A DNA stretch of 64,000 nucleotides from an uncultured Gemmatimonadales bacterium (GCA_963798915.1 CAWCVB010000005.1:453158-517157), one strand, 5' to 3'; counted from the stretch's first letter, positions 12,537 to 21,252 are shown. The notes: generated from the letters alone by a model not told the origin. Translations and numbers: made by a program.

Positions 12537-15413
12537 ATGGCTCAGGAATACCTTGTCGTCCGGGGAGCGCGCGAGCACAACCTCAAGGACATCTCGGTGT
12601 CCATCCCGAGGAATCGCCTCACCGTCATTACCGGCCTCTCCGGCTCAGGCAAGTCTTCGCTTGCCTTCGACACCATCTACGCCGAGGGGCAGCGACGCTA
12701 CGTCGAGTCGCTGTCCGCGTACGCCCGGCAGTTTCTCGGGCTCATGGAAAAGCCTGACGTCGATGCCATCGAGGGGCTTTCGCCCGCCATCTCCATCGAG
12801 CAGAAGAGCACGGGCCAGAATCCGCGGTCCACCGTTGGCACCGTCACGGAGATCTACGACTACCTGCGGTTGCTCTGGGCTCGGACCGGCGTGCCTCACT
12901 GTCCCAATGACGGCAGCCCAGTGGCACGGCAGAGCGCGGCGCAGATTGTGGACGCCGTGTTGCAGCTGCCCGAAGGTACCCGTATTGAGGTTCTCGCACC
13001 GCTGGTGCGAGGAAGAAAAGGCGAGTTCCGGGAAATGCTCGAGGACGCGCGCCGGCGCGGCTTCGTCCGGGTGCGGGTAGACGGCGAGACCTACGACCTG
13101 GCCGACGTGCCCAAGCTGAATCGTCGCAAGAACCACGAGATCGCGCTGGTCGTTGATCGGCTGGTGGCGCGGGCTGCCGACCGCTCGCGGCTGCATGACT
13201 CGATCGAGACGGCGCTGAAGGAGGCCGACGGCATCGTCGAGGTGATTCGCCACGACGGGCAGGGCGGGCGTGGCGGGAAGGTGTCGTCGGTGTTGTACTC
13301 CGAGCGCCTGGCGTGTCCCGTGTGCGGGCTGTCCCTTCCCGAGCTCGAGCCGCGCCAGTTCTCGTTCAATTCCCCGTATGGCGTCTGCCCCGATTGCAAC
13401 GGCCTCGGTACCCGCAAGGAAGTGACGCCGGGGCTCATCCTTGGCGATCCGAGCATTTCCATTCTCGAAGGAGTCGTACTGCCCTGGGGCGAGCCCGGGG
13501 GGTATCTCCGCAAGGTCGTGATTCCCACTCTTGCCCGCACCATCGGGTTCGACCCGGCTGCTCCCTGGGGCGATTTGCCACCGGCCGCGCAGGACGCCCT
13601 GCTGCACGGAACCGAAGGCAAGATCCGGTTTGCTGCCGACGGCGCCAAGGGAAAGACTGCCTACGAGGCAGAATGGGAGGGCATCCTCCGGAACGTCGAG
13701 CGGCGCTACCGCGAGTCGACCAGCGACGCGGTGCGCACCTCGCTCGACCAGTACATGGTCGAGATGCCGTGCAGCACCTGCGGCGGCCACCGGCTCAAGC
13801 CCGAGTCGCTCTCGGTGCTGGTGCAGGGCCGCAGCATCGGCGAAGTCATTGATCTTCCGGTGGACCGCGCGCTCGAATTCGTCTCATCGTTGCCGCTGCG
13901 CAGTGGCGAGAACGTGATCGGGCTGGATGCCGACGTGGCCGGCCCCATCCTCAAGGAGGTCGCCGACCGTCTGCGCTTCCTGGCCGACGTCGGTCTCGGC
14001 TACCTCACCTTGGGGCGTGGCGCCGGCTCGCTCTCCGGTGGCGAGATGCAGCGCATCCGCCTCGCCACCCAGATTGGGTCGCGACTGGTCGGGGTGCTCT
14101 ACATCCTGGACGAGCCGAGCATCGGGCTTCACCAACGAGACAACGAGCGTCTGCTGGATACCCTGCGCGGCCTGCGCGACCTGGGCAACACCGTCATCGT
14201 CGTGGAGCACGACGAAGACACCATTCGTGCGGCCGACCATGTGCTGGATCTCGGCCCCCGTGCGGGGCGGCTGGGTGGCGAAGTCGTGGCTGAGGGCACG
14301 CCGGACGAAGTGACAGCGGCACCGGATTCGCTCACCGGCCGCTACCTGCGCGGCGAGCTCAGGGTCAACGTGCCGGAGCGGCGCCGGTCCGCCAACGGGC
14401 GGGCCATCACCGTCGTCGGCGCGTCTGCCAACAATCTCAAAGATCTGGACGTGCGCTTCCCGCTCGGCGTATTCACCGCCGTCACCGGAGTTTCCGGTTC
14501 AGGCAAGTCCACGCTCGTCACTGACATTCTCTACCAGTCACTGGCACGGCATTTCTATCGGGCGCGGGTTCTTCCGGGGGCGCACCAGCGGATCGATGGA
14601 TTGGAGCAACTGGACAAGGTCATTGATATTGACCAAAGCCCCATCGGTCGGACGCCACGCTCAAACCCGGCAACGTACACCGGGCTGTTCACCCCGATTC
14701 GCGAGCTGTTCACCCAGTTGCCCGAGGCCAAGCTGCGCGGTTATGGCCCGGGTCGGTTCTCATTCAATGTGAAGGGCGGGCGCTGCGAGGCCTGTCAGGG
14801 TGACGGGCTGGTCAAGATCGAGATGCATTTCCTGCCTGACGTTTACGTTCCCTGCGAAGTCTGCAAGGGTCGGCGGTATAACCGCGAGACGCTCGAGGTG
14901 CGCTACAAGGGGCGCAGCATCGCTGATGTGCTCGACCTCACGGTGGCAGACGCGCTGGACTTCTTCGCGAACCAGCGGCGGATCGCCGACCGGCTGGAGC
15001 TTCTCAATGACGTCGGCCTGGGGTACATCCATCTCGGTCAGCCGGCCACGACACTCTCCGGCGGCGAGGCGCAGCGGGTCAAGCTGGCGGCGGAACTCGC
15101 CAAGCGCGACACCGGGCGCACGCTCTACATCCTCGACGAGCCGACCACCGGTCTCCACTTCGAGGACGTGCGGCTTCTGCTCGAGGTCCTGCATCGTCTG
15201 GTCGACAAGGGAAACTCGGTCGTTGTCATCGAACACAACCTGGACGTAATCAAGACGGCCGACTGGATCATCGACCTTGGGCCGGAGGGCGGTGAGCACG
15301 GGGGACGCGTCCTGGCGGAGGGTACGCCGGAGCAGGTGGCGCAGACCACCGGAAGCTTTACGGGGCAATACCTCCGGAGAGCGCTGCAGGGACGACCCGC
15401 CGCCTCGCGCTAG
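12537..15413 (+). CDS. uvrA: Excinuclease ABC subunit A
   Basis: Two ABC ATPase domains ([18 protein letters not shown]), zinc fingers, [18 protein letters not shown]. Confidence 0.98.
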
Positions 15414-15483
15414 GATCGGAGCACGTCCGTCGCCCCACTAGCCAGCTACTTGCCGCCGACTAGCTTCAGGCGGAGGAGGCTGC

Positions 15484-15717
15484 ATGCGCGAGGCCCATAC
15501 CCACAGATACACCAATGGAGACCTTACGGTCCTTTGGCAGCCTGCGCTCTGCCAGCACTCCGGCGCATGCGCTCGCGGCCTGTTGGCCGTCTTTGATCCC
15601 CGACGGCGGCCATGGATCGACATGACGGCTGCCCCAACCGACCAGATCGAGGCCCAGGTACGTCGCTGCCCGAGCGGAGCGCTGAGTTGCGCGCGAGTTG
15701 AGCGTCGGCCGTCGTAG
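15484..15717 (+). CDS. Small divergent 4Fe-4S-binding protein (YjdI/Fer4_19-like)
   Basis: CQHSGACARGLLAVFDPRRRPWI...CPSGAL and a strong GGAGG RBS. Confidence 0.85.
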   Translation: MREAHTHRYTNGDLTVLWQPALCQHSGACARGLLAVFDPRRRPWIDMTAAPTDQIEAQVRRCPSGALSCARVERRPS

Positions 15718-15780
15718 CGCTCAGCGCTCGGCCCGCACTTCCTGGCTCTGAATCTTCCATACCATCCGAGGAGACATCCC

Positions 15781-15996
15781 ATGCGCTACGATGATATTCT
15801 CTCCTTGCTCGGCTATGCTGGCGACCACGACCAGCGGGTCAGGATCGTGACCTCCGAACACACCGAAGTGGTCGGCATTCCCACCAGTCTGGATACGGAC
15901 GTTACGGCCCACGAGGTCTACCTGCGGCCCGAAGAGTCGGACGAGACGGAGATTGCGGTTTCGCTGGGCGCCATCGCCTCGGTTGAGCTGGTTTGA
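15781..15996 (+). CDS. Small hypothetical protein (71 aa)
   Basis: GAGGAG RBS, host-like codon usage, fills the gap between genes. Confidence 0.7.
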   Translation: MRYDDILSLLGYAGDHDQRVRIVTSEHTEVVGIPTSLDTDVTAHEVYLRPEESDETEIAVSLGAIASVELV

Positions 15997-16009
15997 CTCC
16001 TGGCCGTGA

Positions 16010-16036
16010 CGAAACAAACTGAAACATCAGGACGTA
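16010..16036 (+). promoter_or_regulatory. Candidate ECF sigma promoter (cGAAAC-N17-CGTA)
   Basis: GAAAC at 16011-16015, 17-nt spacer, CGTA at 16033-16036. Lies about 58 nt upstream of the first array gene. Confidence 0.5.
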
Positions 16037-16093
16037 GGGCTGCGCGTTGCCCGGTCTGACCGCCGGCGAAGGCCCGCTCGAGGAGGCGATGGA

Positions 16094-16351
16094 GTGGAAG
16101 GCATACTGGCTATCATCTTCATCTTCGGCGTGCCAGGAGTGATCGCGCTGTCCTTTACCCCCATCGGGAAGGCCCTGACGGAGCGGATCCGCCACGGCGT
16201 TCAGCCCCGGCTGGTCGAGTCAGAACCGGCGATGTATGACGAATTAGACGCCTTGCGCCGCGAGGTCGGGGAGCTGGCCGAACGAGTAGATTTTACGGAG
16301 CGATTGTTGGCCAAGCAGAATGAGCCCCGCCTGGTGGAGGGCGGCGAATGA
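16094..16351 (+). CDS. Small TM + coiled-coil protein, ERxDFxER array member 1
   Basis: AGGAGG RBS. N-terminal TM, C-terminal ELAERVDFTERLLAKQ. Confidence 0.85.
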   Translation: MEGILAIIFIFGVPGVIALSFTPIGKALTERIRHGVQPRLVESEPAMYDELDALRREVGELAERVDFTERLLAKQNEPRLVEGGE

Positions 16352-16668
16352 TGCAGACCGCACCCGTCCTGGCCGGAGATGGCATCCGTCTTGAGCCCTT
16401 CATCGTCGGCATCGTCATTGTGATCGCCATTATCGGTGGCGTCCAGCTGCTGCTGCCGTTGGTGCGGGCGCTTGCGCGCCGATTGGACGGGGGCGGCGAA
16501 TCGGCACAACTTCATGACGAACTCGAGATGTTGCGGGCCAGGGTCCTCGATTTCGAGCCGATGACTCAACGGGTGGCCGAGCTGGAAGAACGCCTTGACT
16601 TCACGGAACGCATGCTTGCTGCCAGCGCCCAGCCCGCCCCCCGGCCTGTCTCGCCGCAGGAGCCCTGA
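16348..16668 (+). CDS. ERxDFxER array member 2
   Basis: ATGA overlap. TM, then VAELEERLDFTERMLA. Confidence 0.85.
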   Translation: MMQTAPVLAGDGIRLEPFIVGIVIVIAIIGGVQLLLPLVRALARRLDGGGESAQLHDELEMLRARVLDFEPMTQRVAELEERLDFTERMLAASAQPAPRPVSPQEP

Positions 16669-16725
16669 CCGGTGGAAGACGTCATCAAGGTGTTGCTGCT
16701 CATCCTCGGTGGGAGGGGGTAACTC

Positions 16726-17082
16726 ATGAGGCGGGAAAAGCAGGAATGGATCGGTGCCGCCTTTGTCGGAATCGGGTTGGGGGCGATGGCACTGTTTGGC
16801 GCGCTCGCTGCGGCGTCCGCCGTGCTGGGTCCGATCTCCGTGCCGATCTGGGCCATCGCCGCATTCATGGTGATGGGTATTGTGAGGTCGCCTGTCGGGA
16901 AGGCATTTGCGGAGCGCCTCGCGGGCCGCACCACTGACTCCGACGACCCGGATCTGCCCGCGCTCTACGCCGAACTTGACGAGTTGCGGGCCCGCCTGAG
17001 CGAGATGGAAGAACGCCAGGATTTTGCCGAGCGGTTGCTGGCGCAGCCACCGCAGGCGGGAATTCACGGGGAAGCGAGCTGA
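16726..17082 (+). CDS. ERxDFxER array member 3
   Basis: Two TM segments, then LSEMEERQDFAERLLAQ. Confidence 0.85.
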   Translation: MRREKQEWIGAAFVGIGLGAMALFGALAAASAVLGPISVPIWAIAAFMVMGIVRSPVGKAFAERLAGRTTDSDDPDLPALYAELDELRARLSEMEERQDFAERLLAQPPQAGIHGEAS

Positions 17083-17085
17083 CTC

Positions 17086-17403
17086 ATGATGCTTCAGGGA
17101 ACTCAGTCGGGCGAGTTTGGCATGGCGCTGGCGCTTGGCGCCGTTGCGATCTGCCTGATCTTTGTGGTGCTGCGGCCGCTGATGGCGGCGCTGATGCATC
17201 GGATTGCCCGCCATGATGATGAGTCGTTGCTCGAGCTCGAGGCCCGGGTGGCGCGCTTGGAGGAGGGCGGGATGATGGGAGCGCTTCCCTCACAGACGGA
17301 GCAGAGGGTGGCTGAGCTGGAAGAACGCCTCGATTTTGCCGAGCGATTGCTGGCGCAGCCACGGACGCCCGGTTCGCATGGCGCCGAGGGAGTGATCCGA
17401 TGA
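17086..17403 (+). CDS. ERxDFxER array member 4
   Basis: TM, then VAELEERLDFAERLLAQ. Confidence 0.85.
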   Translation: MMLQGTQSGEFGMALALGAVAICLIFVVLRPLMAALMHRIARHDDESLLELEARVARLEEGGMMGALPSQTEQRVAELEERLDFAERLLAQPRTPGSHGAEGVIR

Positions 17404-17729
17404 TGATCCAGGTTCCGGCGCCACCGGCGCCTCCTGACATCCCCAGCTTTCTGGTCCAGACGGGCGGTCCTCCGGCCTGGGCGTTTGTCATCCCGATCGT
17501 TGCGATCCTGGTCGCGGGGATCGTGTTCTTCCCCTTGATGCGTGCGCTGGCACGACGGATAGAAGGGAAGATCAGCGGCGGTGTGCAGGATGAGCTGGAG
17601 GATCTCCGGTCACGGATCATGACCTTGGAGGAACAGGCGATGCGCGTGCCGGAGCTGGAAGAGCGGGTGGACTTCGCGGAGCGACTCCTGGCCAGCACCC
17701 GCACGGCCGACCGGTTAACGGAGGGATGA
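17400..17729 (+). CDS. ERxDFxER array member 5
   Basis: ATGA overlap. Pro-rich N-terminus, TM, VPELEERVDFAERLLAS. Confidence 0.85.
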   Translation: MMIQVPAPPAPPDIPSFLVQTGGPPAWAFVIPIVAILVAGIVFFPLMRALARRIEGKISGGVQDELEDLRSRIMTLEEQAMRVPELEERVDFAERLLASTRTADRLTEG

Positions 17730-17732
17730 GTC

Positions 17733-18107
17733 ATGGCGGATGACCAGGATCGCGGCGCTTTCACCATGCTCTGGATCGTCTCGGTACTGCTCTCCATCGG
17801 CATGGGGTTCATGTGCCTGGTCGCTCTGAGCGAAAATCAGGAAGTCGCGGCGCTGTTCGGGTTGGGCGGTTTTGGTGTTGGCGGCTTGCTCGCTACCACC
17901 TACCAGCTCACACGCAACCGGCGTCGTTCGCGGCCATCGGACGAGGCCCTCGAGCCACTGGTGGAGCGACTGCAGATGCTCGAGCAGGACCAGCTACGGA
18001 TGGCCGAACTTGAAGAGCGGGTAGATTTCGCCGAACGGATGCTGGCCAAAGCCGAGGAGCATCAGCCCGCGGTGCGCTCAGGCGAGCGGGAACCACCCCT
18101 CACATGA
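17733..18107 (+). CDS. ERxDFxER array member 6
   Basis: Two TM segments, then MAELEERVDFAERMLAK. Confidence 0.85.
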   Translation: MADDQDRGAFTMLWIVSVLLSIGMGFMCLVALSENQEVAALFGLGGFGVGGLLATTYQLTRNRRRSRPSDEALEPLVERLQMLEQDQLRMAELEERVDFAERMLAKAEEHQPAVRSGEREPPLT

Positions 18108-18469
18108 GCTGGCGCAGGACTTTCGGGCTTGACCCGATTGAGTTCATCATCTTCTGGCTGCTGGCCTTCGGGTTGGGCGTGGGCCTGGCCGACCTCAGCC
18201 ACGAGGACGGATTCATTCCTCTCGCGCTCTCGGTGGCGGCGGGGCTCTATGTGTTCGTCCGGCGCCGAGCACTCGGGCGGCTGGGGCGGGAAGGGCAGGC
18301 CGGTGATGACCTGGCGGAATTGCGCGACGACCAGCGCGCCGCCACCGACTACTTTGAGCGCCGGATCACGGAGATCGAGGAGCGCCTGGACTTCACGGAG
18401 CGGATGCTGGCGCGGGCTCAGGATGAGATGCCGCTGCTGGAGCCCCGGCGGGGCGGGCAGGGCTCGTGA
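18104..18469 (+). CDS. ERxDFxER array member 7
   Basis: ATGA overlap. Two TM segments, then ITEIEERLDFTERMLAR. Confidence 0.85.
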   Translation: MSWRRTFGLDPIEFIIFWLLAFGLGVGLADLSHEDGFIPLALSVAAGLYVFVRRRALGRLGREGQAGDDLAELRDDQRAATDYFERRITEIEERLDFTERMLARAQDEMPLLEPRRGGQGS

Positions 18470-18855
18470 GCTGGCGGGGTGTTTTCGGGCTCGACGGAGT
18501 CGAGTTCGTGCTCTTCTGGGCTGGCTCCATCGTTACGGCGATCCTCGTCGGGGTGGCCTCGGAGGAGCCGGCAGCAGCGATGTCAATGCTGGTACTGGCC
18601 GCGTTCGTGTACGCGGTGCTGCGACGGCGGGCGCTCCGCGGCCTGCCGGCGCAGGACGGGGGCAAGCTGGAGGAACTGGTGGCCCAGCTGCAGGACGAAC
18701 AGTCGGCCGCATCCGAGTTCTTCGAGCGACGCATTGCCGAGCTGGAGGAGCGGGTGGACTTTGCTGAGCGCATGCTGGCGCGAGGGCAGGAAGAACGGCT
18801 GGAAGCTGGCCGTCAGTCATCGGTCATCAGTCGACCGTTGACTGACGACCCTTGA
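18466..18855 (+). CDS. ERxDFxER array member 8
   Basis: GTGA overlap. Two TM segments, then IAELEERVDFAERMLAR. Close paralog of member 7. Confidence 0.85.
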   Translation: MSWRGVFGLDGVEFVLFWAGSIVTAILVGVASEEPAAAMSMLVLAAFVYAVLRRRALRGLPAQDGGKLEELVAQLQDEQSAASEFFERRIAELEERVDFAERMLARGQEERLEAGRQSSVISRPLTDDP

Positions 18856-18890
18856 CCGGCACGAGCGACGACTTACTCACGGAGCACCAC

Positions 18891-19286
18891 ATGGTCACAC
18901 GGGAAGATATTCAGTCCTGGCTGGACCGGCTGGATGGAGGCGGGCTCCAGATCGAAGAGCCGGAGTCCAATCTCTGGATTGCCACGACGCCGGACGGCGG
19001 CGAGATCGTATGTAACTATGCCCCTCCGGTCATGATTCTCCGGGTGCGGGTCATGGAAGCTCCGCGGGACGATACCCGCCGGGCCGAGCTCTTTCGGGAG
19101 CTCCTGACCTTGAACGCCCACGAGCTGGTCCATGGCTCGTACGGGCTGGAGGGTGACCATATCGTGCTGACGGACACCCTCGAGCTCGAGGACCTGGATT
19201 ATTCCGAATTCGAAGCCAGCTTCGATTCCATGACCCTTGCCCTGGCGTCGCACATGTCTGCGCTGGCGCCCTACCGAGACAGGTGA
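18891..19286 (+). CDS. CesT/YbjN-like (type III chaperone fold) protein
   Basis: GGAG RBS. ELFRELLTLNAHELVHGSYGLEGDHIVLTDTLELEDLDYSEFEAS matches the CesT-type pattern. Confidence 0.75.
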   Translation: MVTREDIQSWLDRLDGGGLQIEEPESNLWIATTPDGGEIVCNYAPPVMILRVRVMEAPRDDTRRAELFRELLTLNAHELVHGSYGLEGDHIVLTDTLELEDLDYSEFEASFDSMTLALASHMSALAPYRDR

Positions 19287-19295
19287 GAGACGACG

Positions 19296-20063
19296 ATGGG
19301 AATCTTTGACCGCTTCTCGACGCTGCTCCGGTCGAACATCAACGACCTCATCTCCCGGGCCGAGAATCCCGAGAAGATGCTGAACCAGCTGATCACGGAC
19401 ATGCGATCACAGCTGGGCAAGGCCAAGACCGAGGTGGCGGGTGCCATCGCGGACGAGAAGAAGCTGGAGTCCGACGCCCAGGCCATGAAGAAACAGGCCG
19501 AGGAGTGGGAACGCCGTGCCATGCTGGCGGTCCAGGAAGGGCGTGACGACCTGGCCAAGCAGGCGCTGACTCGCTACAACGAAAACCTGCAGGGCGCCCA
19601 GCAGCTGCACGAGACCTGGGTCAAGTCCAAGCAGGAGACCGAGGCGCTGAAGCTGTCGCTCCGGCAGTTGAATGACAAGATCGAGGAAGCCAAGCGCAAG
19701 AAGAACATTCTGATTGCACGAGCGCGGCGGTCCGAAGCGCAGCAGCGCATTCAGCAGACCATGGCTGGCATGTCGGACAAGAGTGCCTTCGAGTCGTTCG
19801 AGCGGATGGCGGAGAAGATCGAATCCAACGAACGCAAGGCGCTGGCGGCGGCCGAATTGCACGAAGAGTTTACCGGCGACTCGCTGGCCAGGCAGTTCGA
19901 GGTGCTCGAGTATCACGGCAGCGCCGACCAGCAGCTGCTCGAATTGAAGCAGAAGATGGGACTGCTCGGTGCCGGCAGCAGTGGCGAGGCAAGGCGCCTC
20001 GGCAAGGGAATGGATGACGTGCAGGATGCCGAGGTGGAGGAGGAGGGGGGAACTGAAGGCTGA
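19296..20063 (+). CDS. pspA: PspA/IM30 family protein (bacterial ESCRT-III-like)
   Basis: MGIFDRFSTLLRSNINDLISRAENPEKMLNQLITDM, A...GRDDLAKQAL, AFESFERMAEKI, long coiled coil. Confidence 0.93.
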   Translation: MGIFDRFSTLLRSNINDLISRAENPEKMLNQLITDMRSQLGKAKTEVAGAIADEKKLESDAQAMKKQAEEWERRAMLAVQEGRDDLAKQALTRYNENLQGAQQLHETWVKSKQETEALKLSLRQLNDKIEEAKRKKNILIARARRSEAQQRIQQTMAGMSDKSAFESFERMAEKIESNERKALAAAELHEEFTGDSLARQFEVLEYHGSADQQLLELKQKMGLLGAGSSGEARRLGKGMDDVQDAEVEEEGGTEG

Positions 20064-20100
20064 GGGCGGAATGCTCGCCGCTGAAGGCTGAACGCTGAAC

Positions 20101-20146
20101 ACCCGGGCCGGGCACCGTGTTAGTATTCACGGCGCCCGGCCCGGGT
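20101..20146. terminator. Strong GC hairpin after pspA
   Basis: ACCCGGGCCGGGCaCCGTG / CACGGcGCCCGGCCCGGGT inverted repeat. No clear U-tract. Confidence 0.5.
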
Positions 20147-20181
20147 ATCGCTTCAGCCTATAGCCTTGAGCCTTCAGCCTC

Positions 20182-21252
20182 ATGCCCACTCCCCGCTTCC
20201 TGATCCTGGCCGATGGCGATTTCGGCCCCATGACCTCGAAGACCGCCAATTCCGTCATCCGGTTTCAGCCCGATCGGATCGTGGCGGTGCTGGACCGAAG
20301 TCAGGCTGGCCGTACCGTCCAGGACATTCTTGGCTTCGGCGGCGACGTGCCCGTGGTTGGCTCCATGATGGAAGGACTCGAACGCCAGCCCACGGCGGTC
20401 CTGATCGGCATTGCGCCACAGGGCGGTCGGCTGCCGGACGAGTGGCGGAGCTGGCTGGCGGATGCGCTCGATGCCGGATGTGATATCTGGAGCGGGCTCC
20501 ATACCTTCCTCGCCGACGATCCGCTCCTGGCCGAGCGGGCCCGGGCCAACGACTGCCGGTTGCTCGACCTGCGTCGCCCACCCGCCGACCTGCCGATCGC
20601 CAGCGGGGCGGCCAAGCAGACCGAGGCCTTTCGGGTGCTGACCGTTGGGACCGACTGCAACGTGGGCAAGATGACGGCACAGCTCGAACTGGTGAAGTCC
20701 CTGAATGCGCGCGGCGTCCGCACTCGCTTTGTACCCACGGGCCAGACCGGCATCATGATCGAAGGCTGGGGCATCGCGGTTGACGCCGTGGTGGCGGACT
20801 TCATCGCCGGCGCTGCAGAACGGATCACGCTCGAAGGCGCGCGCGACTCGGACGTCGTTCTCGTCGAGGGGCAGGGAAGCATCAACCACCCCGGCTACTC
20901 CGGCGTCACATTGGGATTGCTCCATGGGAGCTGCCCCGACGCCATGATTCTCTGCCACCAGACCACCAGGCAGTATATCGGGGACTATCGTCAGGCCTCC
21001 TGGCTCAAGATGCCGCCGTTGGCGGAGTACGTGCGCATCTACGAGACCATCGCAGCCGTGGTCCATCCGTCGCGCGTCATCGGCGTCGCACTCAATACGT
21101 ATGACATGAGCGAGGCCGATGCACGAGCCGCCTGCGCGGCAACCACGCGCGACACCGGGTTGCCAGCCACCGACCCAGTGCGGTTCGACGAGACGCCCCT
21201 GATCGATGCAGTGCTGGCGGCGCGGAACGCGAGGGTCCAGTTGACCCGATGA
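20182..21252 (+). CDS. DUF1611 family P-loop protein (DgcN-like)
   Basis: RVLTVGTDCNVGKMT, PTGQTGIMIEGWGIAVDAVVADFIAGA, VEGQGSINHPGYSGVTLGLLHGS. Confidence 0.88.
   Translation: MPTPRFLILADGDFGPMTSKTANSVIRFQPDRIVAVLDRSQAGRTVQDILGFGGDVPVVGSMMEGLERQPTAVLIGIAPQGGRLPDEWRSWLADALDAGCDIWSGLHTFLADDPLLAERARANDCRLLDLRRPPADLPIASGAAKQTEAFRVLTVGTDCNVGKMTAQLELVKSLNARGVRTRFVPTGQTGIMIEGWGIAVDAVVADFIAGAAERITLEGARDSDVVLVEGQGSINHPGYSGVTLGLLHGSCPDAMILCHQTTRQYIGDYRQASWLKMPPLAEYVRIYETIAAVVHPSRVIGVALNTYDMSEADARAACAATTRDTGLPATDPVRFDETPLIDAVLAARNARVQLTR

Follow-up and report, generated by a model that had tools for sequence, protein, structure and literature searches.

PspA/IM30 proteins are bacterial relatives of ESCRT-III and repair and remodel membranes. 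To our knowledge, how PspA is targeted to membranes is largely unknown outside Proteobacteria, Firmicutes, and Actinobacteria. In Escherichia coli, the pspABCDE operon encodes PspB, a small, bitopic protein of the inner membrane that has a transmembrane (TM) helix at its N terminus and a helical domain in the cytoplasm. Passages of a 2024 mSystems paper (PMC11237479) describe LiaI of Bacillus subtilis and PspM of Mycobacterium tuberculosis as small integral membrane proteins that are encoded beside a PspA homolog and recruit it to the membrane. In the same passages, a CesT/Tir-PspA dyad of the yjfI-yjfJ class is presented as a conserved core neighborhood, with band-7/flotillin, AAA+ ATPase, YqiJ-type three-TM, and spermine-synthase genes as described partners, and SHOCT or SHOCT-like short helical C-terminal modules found in phage shock protein (Psp) contexts are proposed to assemble membrane-associated complexes. 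Here we analyze a locus within a 64,000-nucleotide stretch of DNA from an uncultured Gemmatimonadales bacterium (the window; GCA_963798915.1, CAWCVB010000005.1:453158-517157; positions count from its first letter), where eight tandem genes for small membrane proteins with a common C-terminal tail lead into a CesT-like gene and pspA. The locus most likely represents a Psp system whose small membrane partners form a new class that has multiplied.

The listing of open reading frames (ORFs) in the window contains eight consecutive ORFs of 85-129 amino acids (aa) on the + strand, spanning 16094-18855. They are tightly packed, with four 4-nucleotide (nt) overlaps (ATGA three times, GTGA once), two 3-nt gaps, and one 57-nt gap, the sole sizeable one in the array, between the second and third genes. 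The array is followed by a CesT_Tir_1/YbjN-like gene (18891-19286, +) and, 9 nt 3′ of the latter, by pspA (19296-20063, +, 255 aa), which codes for a PspA/IM30, ESCRT-III-like protein. The longest ORF of the CesT-like gene runs from TTG 18852 to 19286 (144 aa), but its start is probably ATG 18891, because 19 aligned orthologs begin at MVTRED-like residues. It matches the Pfam model CesT_Tir_1 (PF22550) with an E value of 7.7e-24 and 84.6 bits against a cut-off of 27, over profile positions 5-128 of 131; the YbjN and CesT models matched more weakly. The pspA product matches PF04012 (E 2.2e-47; 162 bits against a cut-off of 33.9; profile positions 1-217 of 220) and is the sole PspA match in the genome. 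A first-pass annotation made from the sequence alone had described eight tandem ORFs with one or two TM segments and a shared tail, packed closely into what looked like one operon together with a CesT-like gene and pspA. The ORF listing, alignment, and hydropathy bear out the former description, and the gene junctions with the PF22550 and PF04012 matches bear out the latter.

The shared feature of the eight proteins is a C-terminal block, E-[LMI]-[EA]-E-R-x-D-F-[AT]-E-R-[LM]-L-A, in which E, E, R, D, F, E, R, L, and A are invariant in the alignment of the eight; outside this tail, the paralogs are 29-39% identical to the first of them (paralog #1). The motif is carried by all eight window ORFs and by 133 of the 136 array members compared across 21 loci, and its key residues are kept in nearly every one of these 133 carriers (E 131, R 133, D 127, F 132, E 133, R 133, L 130). 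This amphipathic C-terminal helix, ER.DF.ER.L, hardly varies. In the 14 codons that encode the motif, comparison of the 28 paralog pairs gave on average 6.1 synonymous and 2.5 non-synonymous codon differences, at nucleotide identities of 67-90%. This excess of synonymous differences shows purifying selection on the tail peptide. It also rules out gene conversion or recent duplication as the source of its constancy.

The membrane part of the proteins comes in three forms: a single TM helix, a Pro-rich N terminus ahead of one TM helix, and a two-TM hairpin. A hydropathy scan identified one or two hydrophobic TM segments per protein, with a second segment in four of the eight window paralogs. The 15 residues past the last TM segment contain 3-5 Lys/Arg residues versus 0-1 ahead of a single TM segment, which by the positive-inside rule argues for an N-out/C-in topology with a cytoplasmic tail. 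In the two-TM types (paralogs #7 and #8), both termini are predicted to be cytoplasmic. In an AlphaFold2 model of paralog #5, calculated with an alignment of 140 family sequences, residues 27-107 form one unbroken helix (mean predicted local distance difference test [pLDDT] 91.8; predicted template modeling score [pTM] 0.45), such that the modeled TM helix continues into a cytoplasmic helix of ~60 residues ending at the motif.

The locus resembles the CesT/Tir-PspA dyad in that a CesT_Tir_1 gene immediately precedes pspA; it differs by the added array of small tail-bearing membrane proteins and, in this lineage, by the dispensability of the CesT-like gene. LiaI and PspM resemble the tail proteins in their proposed role only, as membrane anchors encoded beside a PspA homolog. 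Their topologies differ, and LiaI and PspM are single genes, not arrays. No sequence relationship to either was seen, PspM having matched one of the 140 members at E 0.0064. The SHOCT modules are similar to the tail in being short helices that end varied membrane or globular proteins, the tail occurring on at least three kinds of anchor. No SHOCT or DUF1707 model was among the 25 most frequent Pfam families in a scan of the 140 members.

We surveyed 151 genomes of the phylum for tail matches at E ≤ 1e-4, in a tally that includes the unpublished genome G057. Matches were found in all 71 genomes of the window's own family (f1), with 3-19 matches each. Among other families, they occurred in 5 of 31 genomes of f2, as single weak matches, and in 1/2 of f3, 1/1 of f5, 1/6 of f6, 8/16 of f7, and 1/2 of f8; the 19 genomes of f10-f12 had none. 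PspA was present in all 89 tail-bearing genomes, and the tail in none of the 23 genomes without PspA (the PspA tally of this survey also includes G097). Twenty arrays were fetched on the strength of their best tail scores and irrespective of pspA; most represent a separate genus, 19 being from f1 and one from f3. In all 20, comprising 2-11 genes each, pspA lies directly 3′ of the array on the same strand. The CesT-like gene intervenes in 13 of them and is absent from the other 7; a DUF1611/DgcN-like gene is located downstream in 17, and uvrA upstream in 14. A comparison of coordinates in the 41 further f1 genomes with listed matches, from which G057 is omitted, placed a listed tail match on the contig and strand of pspA, 99-1851 nt upstream of it, in 39 genomes; in the other two, G137 and G070, the matches listed fall on contigs other than that of pspA.

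The patchy occurrence of the CesT-like gene bears on the partner of the tail. PF22550 was not found in any of four genomes with CesT-less arrays (96-99% complete), although a positive control genome was matched, and a query with the CesT-like protein returned nothing in five of five such genomes. The tails are equally conserved in arrays without the gene. As the gene is missing both from those arrays and from the tested genomes, the CesT-like protein is not the obligatory target of the tail, a role for which the first-pass annotation had considered it. The partner may then be PspA, the tail itself through self-association, or another protein. A complex prediction with alignments for PspA, the CesT-like protein, and residues 47-109 of paralog #5, run without controls, gave a score of 0.00 and is neutral on binding.

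The same observations make it very improbable that the small proteins are clients of the CesT-like protein, acting as a chaperone that would hold their tails before or after membrane insertion with PspA as a mere neighbor. The location of the CesT-like gene between array and pspA in the 13 arrays would fit such a role, as would the binding of partner peptides by CesT-family proteins described in passages of PMC11237479. However, clients would hardly be expected to keep an equally invariant tail in the 7 arrays without the gene or in genomes where both searches failed to find it. Moreover, the CesT-PspA pair exists without a tail gene in f2 and, according to the same passages, in other phyla.

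The reading that we prefer, and that we regard as evenly poised between right and wrong, is that the tail proteins act in the membrane as anchors or sensors, with a common cytoplasmic helix through which they dock PspA or oligomerize, functionally like PspB, PspC, LiaI, and PspM. The array genes, presumably translationally coupled and placed directly before the pspA gene or the cesT-like-pspA pair, would be co-expressed with PspA through co-transcription. A promoter and terminator scan of 15400-20400 gave no promoter-like and three terminator-like sites, not above shuffled sequence. The variable membrane parts might sample different membrane states or partners and so act as sensors. The constant tail would serve for docking to a single cytoplasmic partner common to all, PspA being the likeliest, and/or for gathering the paralogs into mixed oligomers. 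The array proteins would thereby serve as PspA's membrane anchors or stress sensors, as PspB/PspC, LiaI, and PspM do elsewhere. Two groups of results, one from the comparison with PspB and the other from the genomic context of the tail, weigh against this reading.

With respect to PspB, the likeness is one of architecture, topology, and operon context, and on present evidence the tail proteins are not members of the PspB family. Like PspB, they are small, their N-terminal TM helix leads into a helical domain in the cytoplasm, and their genes neighbor pspA. PspB is encoded with both pspA and pspC, whereas the array has no adjacent pspC: the sole PspC-domain match in the genome is on another contig and unlinked to pspA (contig C2:65253-65423, +; E 2.1e-22). 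The tail proteins carry ER.DF.ER.L and lack the invariant LDAEHPNW of PspB. Their genes are upstream of pspA, whereas that of PspB is downstream. Finally, they come in 2-11 copies with varied membrane parts, including two-TM hairpins, whereas PspB has no second hydrophobic segment.

We consider it unlikely, for these and the following reasons, that the tail proteins are genuine PspB homologs that have diverged strongly and multiplied in this lineage. Their topology and size class are those of PspB, and the PspB family is their commonest NCBIfam match, found for 36 of the 140 members at E ≤ 0.05 (best 1.5e-5), ahead of GspM (16) and CcmI (9); the Pfam PspB model (PF06667) matches 2 of 140. The existence of PspB duplicates within psp operons, described in passages of PMC11237479, would also agree with this idea. 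Nevertheless, all the matches fall far below the curated cut-offs. Thus, the PspB model TIGR02976 gave 14.8-17.8 bits for paralogs #1, #5, and #6 (best for #5, 17.8) against a cut-off of 51.7, and none of five proteins of a sister subtype, presented below, matched PspB. E. coli PspB itself matches GspM (8.7e-5) and FtsL (0.08), families that array members match too, and the PspB signal may therefore reflect mere TM-plus-coiled-coil composition. Comparison by hhalign set RV.ELEERLD of the tail on RIQALE.ILD of PspB, in its conserved C-terminal helix, which favors homology, but gave a probability of only 12.6% over 23 columns with the 140-sequence alignment and 9.6% over 10 columns with the eight-paralog alignment. 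This test is weak in both directions because the PspB alignment is shallow, with 18 Enterobacteriaceae sequences that are 77-100% identical. The term "PspB-like" applied by the first-pass annotation is consequently apt for architecture and topology but not for sequence.

With respect to genomic context, the f1 genomes are not independent observations, because the whole gene order from uvrA through the array and pspA to DUF1611 is shared among them. The co-occurrence of tail and PspA follows phylogeny and is hence confounded. In five genomes of f5-f8, each with 1-3 copies of the tail family, none of 10 fetched loci with tail-family matches has pspA within ~9 kb; no recurring family was found among the neighbors of these ten loci. 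The expectation that the array would be linked to pspA in other genomes thus holds for the 20 fetched arrays and most further f1 genomes, but not for f5-f8. In f2, cesT-pspA occurs without a tail gene, and PspA therefore does not need these proteins.

A sister subtype and a fusion extend this picture. The sister subtype is a small TM-plus-helix protein with the tail EEQ.F[LM]..LL, weakly detected by the eight-paralog profile; one of the ten f5-f8 loci (L036) carries it in place of the main subtype. In the window's genome, its gene is directly after bshC, involved in bacillithiol synthesis (contig C6:104435-104656, −, corresponding to L010 1453-1734), and in an f7 genome it is between bshC and murJ (L036 9517-9750). 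The bshC neighborhood is a second conserved context of the wider family. In addition, a 128-aa TM2-domain protein (Pfam TM2, E 1.8e-20) ends in LSERLDFAERLLA. Its gene (contig C6:144384-144767, −, corresponding to L009 1480-1866) is on a different contig from pspA in the window's genome, and full-length relatives of the protein are found in 34 of 41 f1 genomes, the unpublished G159 included. The whole tail family is, in sum, not bound to pspA. The neighbor of the TM2-domain gene is a DUF2383 gene.

These results lend some weight to the main competing explanation, in which the tail proteins form a membrane assembly independent of PspA. Their long helices, running from the membrane into the cytoplasm, would associate via the tail as parallel homo- or hetero-oligomers and make up a scaffold or small pore, and the adjacency to pspA would be inherited gene order. 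Tail genes away from pspA at all ten f5-f8 loci with no recurring neighbor, the unlinked TM2-domain fusion, and the tail-less cesT-pspA of f2 are as this explanation would have them, and a single long helix such as that modeled for paralog #5 is typical of oligomeric coiled coils. A PDB sequence search with the 140-sequence profile yielded weak matches, which cover the last TM helix and the tetrameric coiled coil at the C terminus of full-length KcsA and NavAb-type sodium channels. By analogy of architecture, they may hint at parallel bundles; however, none is significant (best E 0.0064, range 0.006-0.9), and they reflect helix composition.

The slot before pspA argues in the opposite direction. 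A single sister-subtype gene directly precedes cesT-pspA at the one fetched f5 locus (L041), at three of three f6 loci (L042, L141, and L142), and at the one fetched f8 locus (L045); no such gene was found upstream of pspA at 13 loci of f2, five of f7, one of f4, and one of f11. The occupation of one slot before (cesT-)pspA by two subtypes in different families is better evidence of a functional tie than the synteny within f1. An assembly unrelated to PspA also leaves without explanation the 4-nt overlaps and 3-nt gaps that run through the array up to cesT/pspA, and the presence of PspA in every tail-bearing genome. We therefore find the PspA-independent assembly rather doubtful.

An extended form of the preferred reading, in which the tail proteins are partners of PspA, can be put forward tentatively. 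The array may represent a combinatorial membrane-sensor panel for a bacterial ESCRT-III protein, in which up to 11 old paralogs, differing in the part that is embedded in the membrane or faces the periplasm, would co-assemble through the invariant helix, and mixed bundles would recruit or release PspA at particular types of membrane lesion. They would then form a new adaptor class unrelated to PspB/C, LiaI, and PspM. The occurrence of the tail on single-TM, two-TM hairpin, and TM2-domain anchors indicates that it is a portable module, and in this extended form it would be a portable PspA-docking module, also on the TM2-domain protein.

The tail proteins constitute a large family without a Pfam or NCBIfam model and, as far as the sequence searches go, centered on Gemmatimonadota. 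None of the eight small proteins scored above any Pfam or NCBIfam cut-off, and no such model passed its cut-off for the tail family. A HMMER pass of the 140-sequence profile over 1.84 billion cluster representatives gave 4793 matches at E ≤ 1e-3 (1724 of them at E ≤ 1e-10); almost all are 82-153 aa long, and the total amounts to ~4,800 clusters at 50% identity. In a word-indexed search with the eight-paralog alignment, at least 4728 proteins matched at E ≤ 1e-3 out of 8000 scored candidates. Those few that bear a name are "hypothetical protein" entries of Gemmatimonadales metagenome-assembled genomes, none with a Pfam domain, and the 30 nearest clusters in the ESM Atlas are all unnamed hypothetical proteins, with Gemmatimonadota as their commonest source. 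A search for longer carriers returned a single match above 226 aa (P0121, 391 aa) and thus no sign of the tail on large proteins, though this is weak evidence. A defense-system reading was dropped: PADLOC matched none of the nine small or CesT-like proteins and gave only weak coiled-coil matches for PspA (JetC and ZorA).

The first-pass annotation knew of no description of such an array, and the sources searched agree with it. The string "Gemmatimonad" is absent from the main texts of two large comparative-genomics papers on Psp, PMC11237479 and PMC9239133 (mSystems 2022), as distinct from their supplementary tables and web app. Among the matches listed for PspA or phage shock in Gemmatimonadetes, no publication describes such a system.

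The eight paralogs, all on the + strand, differ in both membrane part and age, the latter assessed by BLAST of the parts ahead of the tail across 21 loci. Paralog #1 (16094-16351, 85 aa; tail motif 16271-16312) starts with GTG, with GGAGG 8 nt 5′ of the start, and consists of one TM helix of the MEGILAI...GG type and a cytoplasmic helix. Paralog #2 (16348-16668, 106 aa; motif 16579-16620), whose start overlaps the #1 stop (ATGA), also has one TM helix. Paralog #3 (16726-17082, 118 aa; motif 17002-17043) has a long hydrophobic N-terminal region of the "IPIW" type, and paralog #5 (17400-17729, 109 aa; motif 17652-17693) has a Pro-rich N terminus and one TM helix followed by RALARRIEGK. For the pre-tail parts of these four, 16-20 other loci hold nearer relatives than the window does (19 loci for #1, 16 for #2, 20 for #3, and 19 for #5), and #3 has a 76% identical ortholog in a genome of the same genus (L011). 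By this comparison, all four are old, conserved types.

The remaining members are less widespread. Paralog #4 (17086-17403, 105 aa; motif 17314-17355), with one TM helix, has weak relatives of its pre-tail part in 5 loci. That of #6 (17733-18107, 124 aa; motif 18006-18047), with two hydrophobic segments, has no relative detectable by BLAST among the 21 loci. Paralogs #7 (18104-18469, 121 aa; motif 18371-18412) and #8 (18466-18855, 129 aa; motif 18739-18780) are of the two-TM hairpin type, with MSWR..FGLD as its label in #7. They are mutual best matches, with 40% identity over 90 aa, and their two-TM subclass is found in 9 of the 21 loci. Given these mixed ages, the arrays evolve by birth and death around conserved core types.

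Two antisense ORFs overlap the array, at 16201-17214 (−, 337 aa) and 17084-17812 (−, 242 aa). They look spurious, because their translations are rich in Arg, Pro, and Gly, as is usual for such ORFs in DNA of 64-66% G+C, and the conserved frames are those of the + strand. Upstream of the array, a 71-aa ORF (15781-15996, +) has no Pfam or NCBIfam match but is kept upstream of the arrays in 11 of the 20 fetched loci (phmmer E 1e-13 to 1e-30), at times ~2 kb away. It is preceded by a gene for a divergent 4Fe-4S mono-cluster protein (15484-15717, +; Fer4_19, E 1.3e-23) and by uvrA (12537-15413, +); many genomes of the class likewise have uvrA ahead of the array or of pspA. The DUF1611/DgcN-like P-loop gene 3′ of pspA (20182-21252, +) matches its Pfam model at E 5e-74 and the NCBIfam DgcN model with 285 bits, below the 480-bit cut-off. 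Its relation to the array is one of synteny only, and no functional tie between them was seen.

Its placement in the genome marks the tail family as the obvious candidate for PspA's membrane partner in a major soil phylum. With several paralogs that vary in membrane part and share one tail, these unusual arrays represent a natural experiment on how one effector may be coupled to many membrane inputs, and the invariant 10-residue motif offers a direct handle for mutagenesis and binding tests.

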